In this document: one piece after another, positions 347-40,694 of the stretch | How the letters are laid out: each line of letters opens with the position of its first letter | How positions within the stretch are numbered: the stretch's first letter is position 1 | DNA from: a virus | IMG/VR virus record: IMGVR_UViG_3300021387_000700 | DNA: 64,000 nt | Direction: 5' to 3' (one strand) | Translations under genes and position numbers: made by a program | Notes under the pieces: model-generated | Database searches by the model: none | The model's input: only the letters and a program-made list of their open reading frames with translations | Told to the model about the DNA's origin: nothing

Positions 347-1624
347 TTATGGATTATCCGATATAAAAGGCTGTGTATCAACGGGTATCTCCATGCCAGC
401 CAGCTCAAAATTTATCGGGTCTTTCATGTAATACACCTTTGGATAATCGTCAACACAGCCCGTCCGTTTCGTGTTTCTCAAAAGATGGATGCTTTCGTAA
501 TGGCCTTTAACGTAAATTTTCGACCATATTTCGGGGGAAATCATGCCTATAAGCTTGCGACGTATGTGGTACGTATCATATTGCCGCATAACACCAAGGT
601 AGCTGTTTATGCTTTGTATGTTATGCACCAGCTTCTTATGCGATGTGGAAAAATTGTTTAGGCGGTATATGGCATCGTAGGCGTTTCTTACGGTACGCAT
701 ACCGACGTATGTGCGATATGGCTTAACAACCGCACCTATAAACGCCACACCCTTTGTATAGTGCTGGAAATAGAATTTGTCGGGATGCAGGTAAACATGC
801 AGGTAAAGGCTCAAGAAACGCCGTATCTTTTCCATGTCCTTGAGCATTTTCTGTCTTTCCTCTTCAGTTTCGCAAACAGCCATGAAATACCCGTCGTCCA
901 CATACCGACCGTGATATTTGTACCCAAGCTTTTCTATGAAAACATCAAGCCAATGCAAAAGGAAATTTGCATTATGCTGGCTCGGCAGATTACCTATTGG
1001 CAATCCAAGACCTGCACCGTTTGTAAATAATGATTTGTTCTTTGGTAATTGCCTCCATAATTCATCGGGGCTATGCCTGCGGCAGTCCTTTTCGGGCTCA
1101 TGCAGCATAACCACCTCACTAAGCCAAAGAATATCCTCCTTATCCTCGCCGAAATAGTTGTCTTTGATGAACTGCAAGAGCATCTTGTTAAGCAGATGCA
1201 CATCAATAGACATAAAAAATCCCTGCAAGTCAAATTTGGCTATCCAAACATCTTTCGTGTAACCCTCGCTACATTCGTACATATCCTTTTCCAATTGCGC
1301 CACACCGTATAGTACGCCCTTACCTTTGCGGCAGTTGAATGTTCTATCTGTGAACAGCTTCTCGAGCAAAGGCTCTACGCGCATGGCGATATAGTGATGT
1401 ACGATTCTATCGCGAAATCCCGCAGCGAACACCTCCCGCAGTTTCGGTTTCGTAACCACAAAGGCGATGCTTGTTGATGGTCGGTAAGTTCGGGCGTTTA
1501 TCTCATCTGCCAATCTAAGCAAGTCCCGCTGATAATCGGGGAAATACTTTATATAAGACGGTGATGATGCCTTGTGAATCTTACAAATTTGGAATGCCTC
1601 AAATAAGTATTCATCCCTTACCAT
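347..1624 (-). CDS. DGR reverse transcriptase
   Basis: 425 aa. Carries the DGR-type motif PIGNLPSQ and the catalytic box GRYVDDGYF. Lies 92 nt downstream of the TR on the same strand. Confidence 0.93.
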   Translation of the reverse strand: MVRDEYLFEAFQICKIHKASSPSYIKYFPDYQRDLLRLADEINARTYRPSTSIAFVVTKPKLREVFAAGFRDRIVHHYIAMRVEPLLEKLFTDRTFNCRKGKGVLYGVAQLEKDMYECSEGYTKDVWIAKFDLQGFFMSIDVHLLNKMLLQFIKDNYFGEDKEDILWLSEVVMLHEPEKDCRRHSPDELWRQLPKNKSLFTNGAGLGLPIGNLPSQHNANFLLHWLDVFIEKLGYKYHGRYVDDGYFMAVCETEEERQKMLKDMEKIRRFLSLYLHVYLHPDKFYFQHYTKGVAFIGAVVKPYRTYVGMRTVRNAYDAIYRLNNFSTSHKKLVHNIQSINSYLGVMRQYDTYHIRRKLIGMISPEIWSKIYVKGHYESIHLLRNTKRTGCVDDYPKVYYMKDPINFELAGMEIPVDTQPFISDNP

Positions 1625-1715
1625 AGCACAAAAATATATTCCGTTATATACCGTCTATTATACCATTCCAATATTGGAGCGCAAACTTTATTTATTGTCT
1701 TGTGTATTCTATCAG

Positions 1716-1819
1716 ATGCGGACACGGGGCGAACTAAGTTCTCATTCGTCTTGTTGTTGTTGTTGAAGTTGCCATTGTTGAAATTCAGATTCCAAGCATT
1801 CGTGGCAGAGTTCTCCGTA
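1716..1819 (-). repeat. DGR template repeat (TR)
   Basis: 104 bp, 95/104 identical to 2567-2670. All 9 mismatches fall where the TR coding strand has A. Rich in AAC/AAT codons (..NLNFNNGNFNNNNKTNEN..). Confidence 0.93.
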
Positions 1820-2066
1820 AAACACGTCCATTTTCTTATTCTTAACTCCTTCATCAGTACCATTGCTGCCGACGACGCGAGAACAACAATCGCGGCAATG
1901 TTTCGGAAAGCGTGATGATGCCCAACAAGAGAGGCCACATTCAATCCTTGTACTGAACGCTGGGAGTGGGACGCCCATTTGAAAGAAAAACACATTGCTC
2001 CCGCCAAAATAAGGCTAAAGAGCCCCCGATGTGAATCTCTACTATATTGAAACATGTCTTTTGTCA

Positions 2067-2423
2067 TTATTTCATAGTAGCCTTGCGCCAACCAGTCGCC
2101 TCGCGGCCTATCTCATCAAGCCTACGGGCGATATTCGCGTGGGATTTTTCGTCGATAATCTTTTTATCCTGCGATAATGCAAGCAAGAAGAACAATTGCT
2201 CTTGCACAAGGATGAAATCCCTGCCAAGCACACGGACACGCTCCTCGGAATTTGGCGGGCAAAGATTAGCCTCAACGATTTTCATACTAAGCTGTAGTGT
2301 CAAATCCTCGATGCGGCGGGCTATCGTTGCACGGTATTCCGCTTTAATCTTCTTTGTAACGCCAAACACGTATTTCGCGAGTTCAAACGTATCTTTGTAT
2401 ATCTTTGTATCTCTTGCAAGCAT
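2067..2423 (-). CDS. avd: Avd-like accessory variability determinant (four-helix-bundle family)
   Basis: 118 aa, helical and basic. Lies between the VR-bearing target gene and the TR, the canonical DGR position. Confidence 0.75.
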   Translation of the reverse strand: MLARDTKIYKDTFELAKYVFGVTKKIKAEYRATIARRIEDLTLQLSMKIVEANLCPPNSEERVRVLGRDFILVQEQLFFLLALSQDKKIIDEKSHANIARRLDEIGREATGWRKATMK

Positions 2424-2503
2424 TTCTCGTAGAACGTTGTTGTTGACCTTGTTATTTTGTTATAATTTGCGAAGTTGCCATTAGTGAAATCCCCAGCCCT
2501 ATA

Positions 2504-2534
2504 CCCCGATACCGTCGTTAAGACGATAAAGGGG
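2504..2534 (-). other. hairpin about 32 nt downstream of the VR 3' end
   Basis: Minus strand reads CCCC-TT-TATCGTC-TTAAC-GACGGTA-TC-GGGG: a 7-bp stem with one G.U pair plus an outer 4-bp GC clamp. Confidence 0.4.
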
Positions 2535-2558
2535 ATAAAGGACTAAAGAGATAAATGG

Positions 2559-3305
2559 TTAATAAAATGCGGACACGGGGCGAACTAAGGTCTCATTCGT
2601 CTTGCCGTTGTAGCTGAAGTAGCCATTGGTGAAATTCAGATGCCAAGCATTCGTGGCAGAGTACTCCGTAGAAGACCATCCCCAAGACGAACCGACTGGA
2701 ATTGCAGTACCGCTGATTGCAGCCATGACGAAGTTGATTTCGCGAACGTGCGCCCAAATCATAGCCATCTCGCCAAGTGAAGGCAACCACCAGCGACCAG
2801 CACCCATATTACCGTCGGCAGAATCGACATTGCTTGGGTGATACTCGTTACAATACTTTGCGGCAGGCGCGTTTGCACCGAGCGTTGTCAGAATGGTATT
2901 CGTCTTTGCGCGGCCATCGAAATCTGCAATTGCTGCGCGGCGGTCGCTGATGGCGGTAGTGCCACCCGTAACGTTAGATGTAGCCCATGCCTTTGTTGCT
3001 TGGTCTTTCGCAACAATAAGCGTGCGCCCGTTCTCGATGATACCCGCACCAACGGCGATGCTGGCGATGCTGCTTTCCAATGCACGGTCGGCAGGCCAAA
3101 AACGTGTGTATGAATCCGCGTTTGTAACCACCATAACGTTTCCGATGGTAGGCAGTACGCTTTGCAGCTTTTTTGCGAAGTTGGCGTAGGAGTCGCTACC
3201 CATAAGCTCGTTGCTGGAGTTAAGGATAGGCACGCGAGCACCCGATGCAGCAGCCGTAGTGTTGGCATTGTGCAGGGCTTTAAGAGCATTTTGAATTGTT
3301 CCCAT
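2559..3305 (-). CDS. DGR target protein, tail-fibre/receptor-binding candidate with a DUF1566/C-type-lectin-like C-terminus
   Basis: 248 aa. The C-terminal region reads GRWWLPSLGEM...GWSSTEYSATNAWHLNFTNGYFSYNGKTNETLVRPVSAFY. The last 34 codons form the VR. Confidence 0.85.
   Translation of the reverse strand: MGTIQNALKALHNANTTAAASGARVPILNSSNELMGSDSYANFAKKLQSVLPTIGNVMVVTNADSYTRFWPADRALESSIASIAVGAGIIENGRTLIVAKDQATKAWATSNVTGGTTAISDRRAAIADFDGRAKTNTILTTLGANAPAAKYCNEYHPSNVDSADGNMGAGRWWLPSLGEMAMIWAHVREINFVMAAISGTAIPVGSSWGWSSTEYSATNAWHLNFTNGYFSYNGKTNETLVRPVSAFY
2567..2670 (-). repeat. DGR variable repeat (VR)
   Basis: Gap-free alignment to TR 1716-1819. Differs only at plus-strand positions 2590, 2605, 2606, 2612, 2614, 2621, 2629, 2642 and 2663, all opposite TR adenines. 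Confidence 0.93.
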
Positions 3306-3384: not shown

Positions 3385-3714
3385 TTAACCCGCTATCTTT
3401 ACCCATGTGGAAAGGCTGTTTGAACCGTATGTCACGATTTCGCCATTGTACGTGACATTCTCGCTGTTGTATGTAACGATATGGTTTGGCGTGCCTACGA
3501 TGGATGCGGTGCTTATGAAAGTCTCCTTTGCTACCGTGATAAGCGAGTTTTGTGCATACGTAGCCGTTGGCGAAAGCGACTCTACCGAACCAAGAATCTT
3601 GATACGGTTGGTCTCTACGGTCTTACTTAGGTTGGAAACGAGCGTTTTTACACGCGCCCATACCCATCCCAAGCCTGCACCGTCGAGTTTCTTGTCGTCC
3701 GTCTGTACTGCCAT
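3385..3714 (-). CDS. small fibre-module protein (paralogous N-terminus)
   Basis: 109 aa. The N-terminus MAVQTDDKKLDGAGLG is shared with the ORF at 3739-4422. The C-terminus carries VTYNSENVTYNGEIVTY repeats. Confidence 0.6.
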   Translation of the reverse strand: MAVQTDDKKLDGAGLGWVWARVKTLVSNLSKTVETNRIKILGSVESLSPTATYAQNSLITVAKETFISTASIVGTPNHIVTYNSENVTYNGEIVTYGSNSLSTWVKIAG

Positions 3715-18070: not shown

Positions 18071-19846
18071 TTATATTGTACTTAATATGTTTAATATTTC
18101 GCTTGCGTTCCGTATCTTTCTTACACGGTGTATTCTTGTATCGACCTCCTCTTGGCCGTTGACGTTAAGTAAGGCCAGCATATCGCTCGCCTGCGCTTTC
18201 TTACGCATAATGCCAGCGTCGTCACGTAACATTCGGTAGCAGTCGTATATAGTGCCGCCGCAAAGGAGAATGATGTTATCCATAAGGTCGGGCGACATGC
18301 CTTTTAGCAATGCCTTCATCTTTTCCTTTGGTAGCATCTCTAAACGGCCATTCGGTGTTTTGCTGAATTGGAACACGCGACTTTCAAATACCATGTGTTT
18401 CATTACCGTAGTGCCTCCCGACCGTTTCATGTTCTTATGATTATAGTGAGCATTGGCGAGTCGCGGCTCGTAGTGGATAAGGCCGCTTTGAATCATCTCC
18501 ATAGCGACATGGCCTGCCTCGTCCTTCATCGTCTTGAATTGCGTTTTACCTCGATTGCTTGGCGAGCCTGCACCGCTAAATAATATCGCACGCGGGAAGC
18601 AATCCTTTAGGAATCCAAATCCCTGCACATCTATAATCATCTCCTTTTCTTGCAGCTTGTGCTTGTCACGGAATTGTATAGCCATGATTACGGCCTCGCG
18701 GTTGCTGTTGCTTGTGGAATATTCAATATCCCTGCACACCCAGCCGTAATGCGACCACAGCTCCCAATACTTGAATATTAAGTTATCGAATCCCGTTGTA
18801 GCCATATCCATTGTCATTCGCCGTTGCAGCACTTCGCAGCCAGCAGGCGTTTCCAATGGTCTGAACATGCGCTCCACATCGTTTGTGGCTAACTCCACGT
18901 TTGACAAATCCTCGATGCTTTCCTCTTCGTCCGTTAATGAATAATTCCAATTAACGGCGTATGCGGATGCTGCCGTAGCTGCATTTGCGGCCAGTCCGCG
19001 ATAACCTTTGTTCTTTGAAAGCATCTTTTTATTATCGCGCACATCGAAAGTGAAAAACACCATCGAAAGGATAAAGTCCTCGTAGGACATATCGGGGTCT
19101 ACAAGCAAAAGCGCATCAATGGCATCTTTTGCCTTTTCGTAAACCTCGCGCTTTGTGCGCCCCCAAACGGCCTTTTCATAATCTCCGTTCGGCATGAAGA
19201 AAAACATAACAACGCCATCCATCGACTTGTCGACCGTACCGTCGTCGTTAATCCACCCACCGCCATGCACGCCTTTTCCGCACAGCTTACGCATAAAGCA
19301 CTCTCTTTCGGGGTTCTGTGCGAGGAATACTTGCGCCTTTCCGCTTGTGTCGCTACGCAAACGCGGAAAGAATGTGGATATTGTTCGCCATAAGAATTTG
19401 TTGCACTCGTCGAAAATGAGCTTTTTCGCCTGCAAGCCTTTTGCGATTTTATCTATAACGATAGGGTTCTCGTTATCCAGCTGCTGAAACTTAATCTCAG
19501 AGCCGTTGTAGAGTTTCATACCCATGTCTTGATTGTTACGGATAATCTCGCCTATTGGGTCATGCGGCTGTTTCTTTGTTGTACGGTCGATAAGAGGGTA
19601 CATCTTTTTAAGTGTATCATTTACCTTTCCCGCGCCCCAAAAGTCGCTGATATTACGCATAAAGCATACTATCTTAGCGTTATCGTTCGTAGCAAGGTGC
19701 ATGATAGGAGCATAGTATAATGCAACGGATTTGCCACCGCCCGTACCCCCCGTAAAGCATACGACATCAGCATTAGAACGGATAGCAAACTTTTGGTTGC
19801 CATCCTCTAACGGTGCTAATACAATATCGTTACGCTTACGTGCCAT
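18071..19846 (-). CDS. terL: terminase large subunit
   Basis: Walker A FTGGTGGGKS and Walker B KLIFDE. First ATG taken (MARKRND...); the ORF track's start at 19852 is a TTG. Confidence 0.85.
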   Translation of the reverse strand: MARKRNDIVLAPLEDGNQKFAIRSNADVVCFTGGTGGGKSVALYYAPIMHLATNDNAKIVCFMRNISDFWGAGKVNDTLKKMYPLIDRTTKKQPHDPIGEIIRNNQDMGMKLYNGSEIKFQQLDNENPIVIDKIAKGLQAKKLIFDECNKFLWRTISTFFPRLRSDTSGKAQVFLAQNPERECFMRKLCGKGVHGGGWINDDGTVDKSMDGVVMFFFMPNGDYEKAVWGRTKREVYEKAKDAIDALLLVDPDMSYEDFILSMVFFTFDVRDNKKMLSKNKGYRGLAANAATAASAYAVNWNYSLTDEEESIEDLSNVELATNDVERMFRPLETPAGCEVLQRRMTMDMATTGFDNLIFKYWELWSHYGWVCRDIEYSTSNSNREAVIMAIQFRDKHKLQEKEMIIDVQGFGFLKDCFPRAILFSGAGSPSNRGKTQFKTMKDEAGHVAMEMIQSGLIHYEPRLANAHYNHKNMKRSGGTTVMKHMVFESRVFQFSKTPNGRLEMLPKEKMKALLKGMSPDLMDNIILLCGGTIYDCYRMLRDDAGIMRKKAQASDMLALLNVNGQEEVDTRIHRVRKIRNASEILNILSTI

Positions 19847-19903
19847 ACGCAAAAGTAATTAAAAATGCAACAAGTTTATAAACCTAATAGAAATTTCTTG
19901 TTG

Positions 19904-25150: not shown

Positions 25151-25261
25151 ATTCTAACGTTTTCGTGAACGTGAGGGGTGCGTTGTTGGGGTGTCCCCGA
25201 TGATGCGCCCCTTTGCTTTACGAAATGCCGTTAGAATCAAAATAAACTACGTTCACGAAAA
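25151..25261 (+). other. structured intergenic element with interleaved inverted repeats
   Basis: A attctaacg 25151-59 pairs with A' cgttagaat 25229-37. B ttttcgtgaacgt 25160-72 pairs with B' acgttcacgaaaa 25249-61 (13/13). Inner C/C' is 25174-82 / 25204-12, and there is a ggggtgtcccc hairpin at 25188-98. Confidence 0.5.
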
Positions 25262-25271
25262 AAGTTATATT

Positions 25272-25886
25272 ATGGCAAAGGAAAACGAGAACAAGCAGGT
25301 AGCGCAGGAGCAAGAGGAGATAAAGGATTTTCCAATTGACATCCAAAAAAACATCGTTGAGATAATCAATGATACGCCATCCTTGATACGCCTTGGTGAT
25401 AAGGAGTATAAGGTAAAGGGTATGCGCTATTATTCGTTGTACCGTATATGCAACCTTGTATTAGATATGCGTAAGGCTGATGAAACGTTAGATACTGACC
25501 AAAAGGTTATAACTGCCTTGTGTACCGATTTGGATGCCATGTGTGAAATCATGGCCATTGTGCTTTGCAATCACCTTTTCACTCCCGACGGGAACAATCT
25601 TACTTGGGAGGAGGTTCGCACAAAGAACGACTACTATGTAAGCGTTATGAAGGCAAAGGTCATGCAGAGCACATTTGATGCAAACCAATGGGCGGCAATT
25701 GTGCTGGGCGCAATAAAATCAATAGATTTATCCGCTTTTTTTTTACTCAAAAAATCGGTGAGTACGCTTACGGGTTCACTTCTGATGCGGAAGAAGAAAT
25801 CGGAGGAGACAGCATCACTATTTATGGAAGCACTATCATTGCAGATGCAGCAGACTTCCTCAGAGCCTTCCCACAATACCGATTAG
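25272..25886 (+). CDS. tail assembly chaperone (G-like, zero-frame product)
   Basis: Start at ATG 25272 (MAKENENK...). Lies between the tail tube and tape-measure genes. Confidence 0.7.
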   Translation: MAKENENKQVAQEQEEIKDFPIDIQKNIVEIINDTPSLIRLGDKEYKVKGMRYYSLYRICNLVLDMRKADETLDTDQKVITALCTDLDAMCEIMAIVLCNHLFTPDGNNLTWEEVRTKNDYYVSVMKAKVMQSTFDANQWAAIVLGAIKSIDLSAFFLLKKSVSTLTGSLLMRKKKSEETASLFMEALSLQMQQTSSEPSHNTD

Positions 25887-26122
25887 ATGATTACCTCTAT
25901 CGGTTAAGCATCGCGCAAGTGCAGTTTATGGCTGTTGACAATACGCACACGAAATACTTACGTGGTACGGACAAAAAAGCTTGGCAAAACTTTAAGGATG
26001 CATACGAGGCACAGAAGAAACTCGAACGGTTCTTTAATTCTATCGGTGCGCCTAAAAACCTTGCTGCTGGAGAGGAGATGGAAATCCCCATGCCGCAGCG
26101 AAACAAGAAAAAGAAAGAATAG
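25272..26122 (+). CDS. tail assembly chaperone, -1 frameshift fusion (GT-like)
   Basis: The -1 frame ORF at 25688-26122 overlaps the zero-frame ORF. An in-phase T TTT TTT heptamer lies at 25736-25742. Confidence 0.65.
25736..25742 (+). promoter_or_regulatory. programmed -1 ribosomal frameshift slippery heptamer TTTTTTT
   Basis: Lies within a T9 run (25736-25744). The zero frame reads GCT TTT TTT TTA, which fits the X XXY YYZ phasing. Confidence 0.65.
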
Positions 26123-39289: not shown

Positions 39290-39994
39290 TTAATCAAAAA
39301 GGCTTGTTTGCACCACCGTTTGCCCGTTTGCCTGCCTTATCTCGCCCTTGCATATCCTATCAAAGCGTTCTACGCCCTTATTAAAGTACAAAGGCGATAT
39401 TTCACAGCCCACATAATCAAAGCCCATCTGATATGCTGCAATACGGCTGCTGGCACTACCCATCATCGGGTCAAAGATGATGTTGCCCTCCTTGGCATAG
39501 TTGCGGTAAATCCAGCCGTAAAGCTCTACGGGCTTCTGCGTAGCATGGAAACGCTTATCATCGTGCTTGCTAAGTTGGCTGAACTCCACTATCTTTGCAT
39601 TTCCTTGAAAGCTCGTCCACGCATACTCGCACATGGCCATAGAGAAATTTTCTGGAATCTGCTTTTTCCATATTAAGAAACAGCGAGTGGCAGGCATACC
39701 GTCGAAATAGTTAGCACCCCAAATAATCTGATTCTTGCTCACGCGGAAAAGCTCCTCGAAGAAATCATCATCGGGTGCTTTATCCCATTCATCAATGTCA
39801 ATGGGATTACCGTCCACTTGGCGATAGCGGTTGAAACGGCCTTTGTGGAATCGGCCACCCTTGATGAAAGCCTCGCTGCCGCCATGTCCGTAAGGCGGGT
39901 CGGCTACGGCCAAATCAAAATAATCATCGGGCAGCGTTTTCATATATTCCACGCAATCCATATTGAATACATCGCTCCTAAGTTCTTTTTCCAT
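39290..39994 (-). CDS. DNA methyltransferase (PF01555-type, N6-A/N4-C)
   Basis: Motif IV ADPPYG, HATQKPVEL, and motif I FDPMMGSASS. Confidence 0.85.
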   Translation of the reverse strand: MEKELRSDVFNMDCVEYMKTLPDDYFDLAVADPPYGHGGSEAFIKGGRFHKGRFNRYRQVDGNPIDIDEWDKAPDDDFFEELFRVSKNQIIWGANYFDGMPATRCFLIWKKQIPENFSMAMCEYAWTSFQGNAKIVEFSQLSKHDDKRFHATQKPVELYGWIYRNYAKEGNIIFDPMMGSASSRIAAYQMGFDYVGCEISPLYFNKGVERFDRICKGEIRQANGQTVVQTSLFD

Positions 39995-39997
39995 ATA

Positions 39998-40694
39998 CTA
40001 AAAATCTAATGTAAGTTGACTTTGTTCAATTCTTATTCTCTTCTTCGTCAGTTCATAATAATGCTCGTCAAGCTCAAAGCCGATAAACGAGCATTTCTGC
40101 TGTATCGCCGCGATAAGCGTCGTGCCGCTGCCGCAGGTGCAGTCCATGACTGTGAATTTACCCCCCCCCCATTTTCGTCGCGTCAAAAATTAGACGTCGT
40201 AACAAGTTGACGGGCTTTTCATTGGGATGCACCATCTTGTCGGCGGACACGCGGGGAACGGATATAATATCTACGGGGCGTTTCCCTTGAAACCTAAAAT
40301 CCTTCATCGGCGCGAACACGATGCTTTCGTATCTGCTGCCGTATGCCGATTCAAGGTCGCCCATAGAGTGATTGCCCTTATCCCATATAAGCACGTTCTT
40401 TACGCGCATACCGTTTGCCTGCAATTCATCTATAACGGGCTGCTGAACGTCCCACCGTGTGAACAGATAAACAGCACCCGTATCTTTCATAACCCTCGGC
40501 AGGTACTTGATGAAATCGACAAACGGCCTTTTGTCGTTGGCAATCTTTTCAAAGTGCTTTTGTTTTCCGTTCCAAGAGGACTGATAATCTATGCCGTATG
40601 GCAAATCCGTGATGCACACATCAATGCTCTTGTCGGGTACTTGCTGGATAAGCTCCAAGCAGTCGCCGTGATATACGTTATTGAACTCCAGCAT
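39998..40694 (-). pseudogene. second PF01555-type DNA methyltransferase, split by a frameshift at a G10 tract (possible ON/OFF phase variation)
   Basis: The N-terminal part (40158-40694) carries TDLPYG and HPNEKPVNLL and ends ...KMGGG*. The C-terminal part (39998-40186) carries VMDCTCGSGTT. Removing one G fuses the two frames. Confidence 0.8.
40161..40170 (-). repeat. homopolymeric G10 (C10 on the plus strand) tract
   Basis: Read directly from the sequence. The stop TAA (40158-40160) follows the tract immediately. Confidence 0.9.

Follow-up and report, generated by a model that had tools for sequence, protein, structure and literature searches.

What does it mean when a phage gene for a DNA methyltransferase breaks at a run of a single nucleotide: a gene in decay, an error in the assembly, or a switch caught in one of its positions? 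The question is posed by a 64,000-nucleotide (nt) viral sequence, IMG/VR record IMGVR_UViG_3300021387_000700, the whole of which we refer to as the window. A methyltransferase gene, here called methylase 1, lies on the minus strand of the window and is interrupted by ten consecutive guanines (G10). Our preferred answer, to which we give odds of roughly two in three, is that these guanines form a contingency tract, hypermutable yet conserved, in an orphan, probably N6-adenine-specific, beta-class methyltransferase of a probable Bacteroidota rumen phage. Tract length varies heritably among close relatives and sets the reading frame of the gene, which is otherwise preserved.

A first-pass annotation of the window had reported that a PF01555-type methyltransferase is broken by the G10 run, and the sequence itself, the predicted open reading frames (ORFs), and a profile search all confirmed this. 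The C10 run of the plus strand is G10 on the coding strand, where the codons ACG AAA ATG GGG GGG GGG TAA ATT place a stop codon (positions 40158 to 40160) directly 3′ of the run. Upstream of the break, the N-terminal ORF contains motif IV (DLPYG), the HPNEKP motif, and the presumed target-recognition region; the C-terminal part lies in another frame, held by a minus-strand ORF at 39998 to 40186 whose translation includes KFTVMDCTCGSGTTLIAAIQQKCSFIGFELDEHYYELTKKRIRIEQSQLTLDF. The two fragments match opposite ends of the 221-position PF01555 (N6_N4_Mtase) model (Table 1). The fused protein encoded with nine guanines (G9) scores 85.8 bits against a cutoff of 26.7 and has the motif order of beta-class enzymes, with DLPYG at residues 30 to 34, HPNEKP at residues 156 to 161, and CGSGTT at residues 187 to 192. 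What the break displaces is the S-adenosylmethionine (AdoMet)-binding motif I (CGSGTT) and not, as the first-pass annotation had put it, the catalytic half of the enzyme, since the catalytic motif IV, in which the second residue is Leu and not Pro, sits in the N-terminal ORF. The practical lesson for annotation is that the ORFs at 39998 to 40694 are one gene.

In silico replacement of the tract gave intact proteins of 231 amino acids (aa) with G9, in agreement with the ∼230 aa predicted earlier, and of 232 aa with G12. The products of G8, G10, and G11 were broken, at 214, 178, and 215 aa, respectively, and the G7 product, taken from a protein database, is 177 aa long. The G10 run is the longest homopolymer of the window, where the second-longest G/C run is 6 nt and only 0.03 G/C runs of 10 nt or more are expected from base composition. 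We considered G/C runs of at least 7 to 8 nt inside an ORF or promoter long enough to slip; the G10 run is longer than this and lies within an ORF.

From its motifs and relatives, methylase 1 is probably an orphan beta-class N6-adenine DNA methyltransferase. Homologs in the PDB include MboIIA, DpnA, CcrM, and RsrI, and the closest characterized relatives are adenine specific (MboIIA, DpnA, CcrM, and YhdJ types; NCBIfam PRK11524 and CcrM), with all of these matches below equivalog cutoffs and N4-cytosine enzymes matching too. The family consensus at the tract site is T-x-x-G-G-V-V-L-D-C/P-F-x-G-S-G-T-T, and the tract-bearing clade has a three-residue insertion (GKF or GNF) relative to other relatives and to PDB homologs 8urk and 9c3u (P-G-G---R-V-L-D). 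In an AlphaFold2 prediction for P0001, an intact allele (mean predicted local distance difference test score, 87.5; predicted template modeling score, 0.85), residues 173 to 180 (TKMGGGKF) form a loop between the helix at 162 to 172 and the strand at 181 to 184, just before motif I. The model suggests that the tract encodes a surface loop ahead of the first strand of the AdoMet fold, in which one glycine more or less would be tolerated; this placement would explain why both G9 and G12 are found as in-frame alleles. Out-of-frame lengths remove motif I and would therefore be expected to abolish activity.

Relatives' DNA was taken from IMG/VR and from Logan/ENA assemblies, and a scan of Joint Genome Institute metagenomes supplied two close relatives only, far fewer than Logan/ENA did. 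To judge from the record names, the related contigs are from cattle and sheep rumen metagenomes. Among 41 assemblies that share at least ∼94% identity with the window, pattern matching found G8 in 11, G9 in 11, G10 in 12, G11 in 5, and G12 in 2, and a third G12 locus, beyond that count, was obtained via protein identity. Of three IMG/VR contigs with 94 to 99% identity to the window, two have G9 and one has G11. Near-identical database proteins of 177, 178, 214, 215, 231, and 232 aa correspond to G7, G10, G8, G11, G9, and G12, as their sequences at the site attest: translation stops after KMGG (G7) or KMGGG (G10), continues out of frame as KMGGVNSQ (G8) or KMGGGVNSQ (G11), or reads on in frame as KMGGGKF (G9) or KMGGGGKF (G12). 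The G7 state is known from protein sequence only, and every state seen at the DNA level recurs in independent samples from many studies. Overall, six tract lengths are represented in this natural allele series, which was drawn from more than 60 assemblies and covers at least five lineages.

Tract length has changed repeatedly among these relatives. On a neighbor-joining tree of 37 assemblies (1000 flanking columns, 104 of them variable; total length, 0.19 substitutions per site), parsimony places at least 12 tract-length changes, and the same 1000 flanking columns hold no other insertion or deletion. One relative with G11 (L003) is 99.2% identical to the window over 5.3 kb. The tract states partly follow clades: one G11 subclade draws on 4 samples and one G8 group on 10, and the G10 of the window groups with G11 and G12 sisters.

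Alleles in which the frame is broken (OFF alleles) would be expected to deteriorate downstream of the break if the gene were dying. When the tract was normalized in silico, none of the 27 lineage A genes contained a premature stop; 26 encoded the full 231 aa, and the remaining one (L061) is cut by its contig end. This set includes L009, which is only 85.6% identical to the window at the DNA level and has two conservative changes in its C-terminal part. Across all 27 genes, the C-terminal part shows three changes only, conservative or isolated, and out-of-frame alleles from two further lineages have an equally intact downstream frame. Every OFF allele checked keeps the C-terminal frame.

The tract is also kept as a nucleotide sequence. 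Among the glycine codons in the ORFs of the window, GGG is the least used (62 of 900, or 6.9%), and in 41.6 kb of ORFs, GGG-GGG pairs occur at this tract only. More distant relatives carry it at the same codons, as GTT-G8-TAAT in L039 (74.5% DNA identity), ATA-G8-CAAT in L040 to L042 (72%), and ATG-G7-TAG in L043 (64%). Between the window and L039, L040, and L043, fourfold-degenerate third positions of conserved codons are only 35 to 40% identical, and GGG GGG is still kept. The C-terminal part is conserved as protein among these lineages with near-saturated synonymous sites, and the diverged lineages include both in-frame forms (P0002, P0004, P0152, P0154, and P0158) and out-of-frame forms (P0008, P0027, P0050, and P0155 to P0157). 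A single synonymous change would stabilize the gene and is absent in at least five lineages; such an absence is the textbook reason for holding that the mutability is itself maintained.

These results bear on what the first-pass annotation had proposed, a slipped-strand, phase-variable methylase. Length polymorphism, intact OFF alleles, and conservation of the tract support that proposal, and neither of the outcomes named beforehand as contrary to it was seen: close relatives range from G7 to G12, in frame and out of frame, instead of sharing a single length, and no OFF allele carries a second lesion of the kind that marks a shared break with further decay. A decaying pseudogene is rejected on the grounds that the downstream frame is intact in all OFF alleles and the tract is retained across divergent lineages. 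The label "phasevarion," which had also been applied, does not fit a type II-like, beta-class orphan enzyme encoded by a phage that has no close relative among the bacterial genomes scanned; the genes surrounding methylase 1 include neither res nor hsdR or hsdS.

We propose the following mechanism. Slipped-strand mispairing during phage DNA replication would gain or lose G residues. With 9 or 12 G, translation joins motifs IV and I in one frame, and the resulting 231- or 232-aa enzyme would presumably be active (ON). With 7, 8, 10, or 11 G, translation ends or derails ahead of motif I, an observed break of frame that would turn the enzyme off. Phage populations would then differ in, and probably mix, the methyl mark on progeny DNA. 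Bet hedging would be the most likely benefit: methylated DNA could evade the cognate restriction enzyme of a host, and unmethylated DNA could evade methylation-dependent (type IV-like) restriction or simply spare the cost of the enzyme.

Several points weigh against a selected switch. Contigs were fetched by chosen protein sequence, with cluster listings giving at least 15 members, so that state frequencies are biased and the allele counts are no estimate of population frequencies. Tract lengths were taken from assembled sequences, and the variation seen is between assemblies and not within one population. Since the states are partly clade structured, switching must be too slow to produce a random mix in every sample. 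OFF alleles are at least as frequent as ON alleles in the sampled set, and the lineage with the ATA-G tract (P0005, P0006, and P0150) was found in OFF states only; abundant OFF alleles may also be expected under relaxed selection or long OFF periods.

One rival explanation is neutral instability of a dispensable methylase, one of a tandem pair, in a gene heading for loss with no selected switch. It would account for the frequent OFF states and the lineage found OFF only, the second methylase does adjoin, and among close relatives the sole nonsynonymous changes in the C-terminal part fall in OFF alleles (L056 and L062). It does not readily account for the lack of second lesions or for the conservation of the C-terminal protein over near-saturated synonymous divergence. 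A change of GGG to GGT, GGC, or GGA would stabilize the gene, yet a pure run of a rare codon is kept in at least five lineages, and intact alleles are common in several clades. We consider neutral instability unlikely, though it deserves to be taken seriously.

A second explanation is that the window truly has G9, the tenth G having been miscalled in the homopolymer. Long G runs are error prone, and the window, L044, and L045 probably stem from one sample (SRR873601/SAMN02144230) and are not independent. A pertinent case is a pair of records, L003 (IMG/VR 3300021256_000491; G11) and L091 (ENA SHIW14-1_SAMN02144230-S004; G12), which show no mismatch in 1800-nt flanks; if they represent the same data, calls of runs of 10 nt or more are unstable by one base. 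A mixed population may instead underlie this difference. The window allele, from subsample S009 of the same BioSample label, differs from both records at 6 of 1800 positions.

Two kinds of controls speak against miscalling as a general cause. A T9 run elsewhere in the window (Table 1) was kept as T9 in 64 of 65 related IMG/VR assemblies (62 to 100% protein identity), the exception being a substitution; unlike that of the G tract, its length was unchanged in all 65. In 77 tract-less IMG/VR homologs of methylase 1, the 150 nt that follow HPNEKP contain no G/C run of 5 nt or more and no frame break, and the few that failed an automatic motif test have point substitutions in the G-S-G motif. By comparison, all 11 truncated homologs among the top 120 matches break at the tract site. 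At least 10 other samples, drawn from several studies, also have G10, and tract states that partly follow the tree are not a pattern expected from random miscalls. GenBank records of the group of Bordetella phage BPP-1 vary likewise at a homologous tract, as described below. A miscall in the window is quite improbable, and the polymorphism of the locus holds even if the count in the window is off by one.

Recoding is a third explanation, under which transcriptional slippage or ribosomal frameshifting would yield full-length enzyme from out-of-frame alleles and OFF would mean low expression or a dual product. Long homopolymers are slippage sites. The stop codon that directly follows the run in G10 and G7 alleles (GGG UAA A) provides a context able to favor +1 shifts, and in G8 and G11 alleles, G GGG GGG permits perfect −1 re-pairing. 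A programmed site is, however, normally fixed in one out-of-frame arrangement, whereas in-frame alleles are common here, and the G7 to G12 alleles would need shifts in both directions. The 101 nt downstream form no significant structure (z = −1.51; 17 of 200 shuffles fold as well), and the T9 frameshift site of the same phages is invariant in length. A dedicated programmed frameshift signal was therefore rejected for want of a fixed out-of-frame arrangement and of a stimulatory downstream RNA structure, and we regard recoding as very unlikely to be what the tract is for; leaky expression by slippage on top of a DNA switch is possible. It is scarcely credible that G10 and G7 alleles make a split enzyme, by reinitiation at an ATG 10 nt past the TAA (the M of VMDC) to add a 49-aa motif I fragment to the 178-aa one: gene callers do annotate a 49-aa PF01555 ORF in several G10 contigs, and Met replaces the usual Leu of the family (VLD to VMD) in most tract-bearing lineages, but folding and association of the fragments are without support, ribosomes on G8 and G11 alleles cross this ATG in another frame, and lineage E has Leu at the Met position.

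Methylase 1 lies in an early/replication gene block near a primase-helicase gene, in tandem with a second methylase (methylase 2). The minus-strand string consists of genes for a DUF3127 protein, a 118-aa ORF product, a PALP-like protein, methylase 1, methylase 2, a 208-aa protein, and the primase-helicase. Both junctions of methylase 1, on the PALP-like side and on the methylase 2 side, read TAGTATATG. The ATG of methylase 2 lies 3 nt beyond the in-frame stop of methylase 1, a spacing that may permit translational coupling, and the order of the two methylases is retained in most relatives with sufficient flank. In OFF states, the distance from the end of translation to methylase 2 grows from 3 nt to 54 or 164 nt, which, more speculatively, may lower the translation of methylase 2. 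A promoter and terminator scan gave no more matches than shuffled sequences did, and none on the coding strand within the methylase gene string. In lineage B contigs (L097 to L105, positions 133 to 939), a PAPS-reductase-like gene (PF01507; weak match) takes the place of the PALP-like gene, and the methylases may be part of a variable DNA modification module.

Table 1. Features of the window discussed in the text (positions in nt; DGR, diversity-generating retroelement; PLP, pyridoxal phosphate)
Feature	Position	Strand	Basis and remarks
Poly-G tract, G10 here (OFF state)	40161-40170	-	Sequence; same site is G8 to G12 in relatives' DNA, G7 in protein only
N-terminal methyltransferase ORF, 178 aa, ending ATKMGGG-stop	40158-40694	-	ORF list; PF01555 positions 1-109 (N-terminal end of model); PDB homologs MboIIA, DpnA, CcrM
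C-terminal methylase segment in other frame, KFTVMDCTCGSGTT...TLDF, AdoMet motif I	39998-40160	-	PF01555 positions 184-221 (C-terminal end of model); stop TAG 39998-40000
Second PF01555 methyltransferase (methylase 2), 234 aa; DPPYG, ATQKPVELY, FDPMMGSASS	39290-39994	-	ORF list, Pfam, PDB/NCBIfam comparison
Upstream PALP/PLP-enzyme-like gene, 257 aa	40698-41471	-	Weak match, 30.3 bits, below cutoff of 35; phrog_3650
Large terminase	18071-19852	-	Annotation search
Serine recombinase, 288 aa	53482-54348	+	PHROG: DNA invertase (E 8e-29), integrase (E 5e-23)
DGR reverse transcriptase ORF	347-1624	-	phrog_1423 (E 2e-67); complete DGR spans 347-3305
DGR template repeat; variable repeat	1711-1825; 2562-2676	-	115 nt, 89% identical
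T9 run in overlap of ORFs 25191-25886 and 25688-26122	25736-25744	+	Just upstream of 2163-aa ORF

The assignment of the window to a phage, made in the first-pass annotation, is borne out by the large terminase gene, by tail protein genes, and by a diversity-generating retroelement (DGR); a RecT-like protein is encoded as well. The variable repeat of the DGR forms the 3′ end of the ORF at 2559 to 3305, and mismatches in the repeat core are all A in the template copy. By its sequence, the serine recombinase could serve an invertible segment or an integration function, and its presence makes lysogeny possible. The overlap that holds the T9 run has a layout typical of the −1 frameshift in tail assembly chaperone genes and would be a slippery site of fixed length; the 2163-aa ORF downstream, judged by size and position only, is likely the tape measure gene.

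By its large terminase, the nearest cultured relative of this phage is Bacteroides phage C3_41T2LP, at 53.6% identity. A megablast search of the region against 50,697 GenBank phage records returned no matches, and no relative more than 39% identical was found among 185,579 GTDB species genomes. Shine-Dalgarno-like motifs precede 8 of 43 ORFs, against a background of 9.5%. On the basis of the terminase relative, the DUF3127 gene, and the low use of Shine-Dalgarno sequences, the host of this uncultured rumen phage is probably of Bacteroidota type.

Homopolymers were also seen in or near other phage methylase genes. In Staphylococcus phages of the genus Silviavirus, a homologous methylase is annotated as two ORFs in some genomes, and several Staphylococcus phage records match in two pieces. 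Koomba-kaat_1 (L107; OP263969) has a C8 run at 387 to 394 across the catalytic motif (GAC CCC CCC C TAT), where C7 would read DPPY; V1SA20 (L108; ON814135) has GAC CTT CCT TAT at the same place and an intact gene. The C8 break may be another homopolymer switch or may reflect sequencing errors.

Three homologs that are 66 to 72% identical (P0033, P0036, and P0037) are frameshifted at the alignment position of the tract, after Pro-Pro, and read DSTPPPRSCLG, DSSPPTGWFW, and DSSPQPVLSW, respectively, where intact relatives have DSTPPNGVVLDC. Back-translation of P0033 fits the −1 frame of GVVLDCT and suggests a C-rich run at the site; when IMG/VR was scanned with P0033, no member of its sublineage was found. 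In more distant IMG/VR homologs (L126 to L154; 50 to 56% identical), an A run 42 to 43 nt after the start of the HPNEKP codons varies in length in frame, with A6 or A7 encoding LIKKTT or LIEKTT and A10 in L132 encoding LIKKKTT; the Lys stretch varies, and the frame is not broken. A relative that is 63% identical has no tract in its methylase gene; a G8 run (acaacaacGGGGGGGGtgtgtag) lies ∼550 nt downstream of the methylase match in this relative. This run is identical at 3394 to 3401 of L004 and at 2739 to 2746 of L010, two records that may be one data set.

Encoding a methylase is one of the chief ways in which phages evade host restriction, and methylated DNA is in turn the target of methylation-dependent nucleases. 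If our reading of the tract is true, an unstable heritable switch would let one phage lineage circulate both kinds of particle. It would also explain why methylase genes are frequently split in phage and virome assemblies, where they are called pseudogenes or two genes. We further entertain the broader claim that homopolymer switches in phage orphan methyltransferases are a recurrent, independently evolved strategy, but only tentatively and as possible more than probable. Hints of it are the variable poly-G run that both the rumen clade and Bpm of a Bordetella phage (described below) have in the loop before motif I, the poly-C break in the Staphylococcus phage methylase, and the Pro-Pro breaks in P0033, P0036, and P0037. 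Were it right, many phage methylases that databases list as split or pseudogenized would be epigenetic bet-hedging switches caught in the OFF state; such switches would balance evasion of classical restriction against evasion of the methylation-dependent kind, and the switch in the window might co-regulate the downstream methylase through lost translational coupling. The locus is in any case an unusually rich natural data set on switching and selection in the rumen.

How does the tract compare with known systems? Methylase 1 likely serves in antirestriction, and text from a review gives self-protection as the service of phage orphan methylases. Like the orphan antirestriction methyltransferases of phages, such as Dam of T4 and P1 and the multispecific enzymes of Bacillus phages, it is a stand-alone methylase; unlike in the window, switching by a coding repeat is not reported for them. 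Bacterial phasevarions (Haemophilus, Neisseria, Helicobacter, and Moraxella) likewise have a repeat in a methylase ORF that is turned ON and OFF by slipped-strand mispairing. They are, however, chromosomal type III mod or type I hsd systems that reprogram host gene expression, whereas the enzyme of the window is a small, orphan, type II-like phage protein.

Contingency loci of phages are closer in kind. A 2025 preprint (10.1101/2025.10.21.683753) describes homopolymers that shift the frame of phage genes in Campylobacter Fletchervirus (poly-G) and in T2/T4, as in the window, with shifts at high rates, phenotypically mixed populations, and bet hedging; it also cites Sorensen et al. 2021 (Cell Rep 35:109214) for hypermutable poly-G in the receptor-binding proteins of Campylobacter phages and attributes the observation of poly-G tracts in the BPP-1 methylase gene to Liu et al. 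2004. The Fletchervirus and T2/T4 tracts lie in receptor-binding or other genes and affect adsorption or escape from defense, whereas the tract of the window lies in a methyltransferase gene and would act on the phage epigenome.

The closest parallel is bpm of Bordetella phage BPP-1, annotated in its GenBank record as an adenine DNA methyltransferase gene and homologous to the window methylase in PF01555 (26% identity; E 1e-22). Its sole long homopolymer is a G8 run in ATG CCG GGG GGG GTG GTG CTA GAC, and the encoded MPGGVVLDPF aligns with KMGGGKFTVMDC. The tract at this site is G8 in BPP-1 and vB_BbrP_003, where the gene is annotated, G9 in BIP-1, and G10 in BMP-1; the latter two lengths put bpm out of frame, and both records are nearly without gene annotation. 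The bpm tract is reportedly a hotspot for frameshift mutations. The bpm gene of the Rauchvirus phages BPP-1, BIP-1, and BMP-1 thus resembles the window gene in being a phage orphan beta-class methylase with poly-G in the loop before VLDPFxGSGTT, and BPP-1, like the phage of the window, combines a DGR with a poly-G methylase. The two genes are not orthologs, and host, phage type, and G+C context differ. The simpler reading is that the rumen and bpm tracts are independent in origin, because many closer homologs have no tract. The window clade differs from bpm in being ON at a length of 9 or 12 with the three-residue GKF or GNF insertion in the loop, and the evidence for it comes from metagenome assemblies, more than 60 of them and from several lineages, that are naturally polymorphic at the tract, compared with three related isolates for bpm. 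A phage adenine methylase with a homopolymer hotspot was known already, as were phage contingency loci in general; what the window and its relatives add is a second, unrelated phage clade with the switch at the same protein loop as Bpm, a tract conserved at the nucleotide level over deep divergence, and a large natural allele series from G7 to G12.

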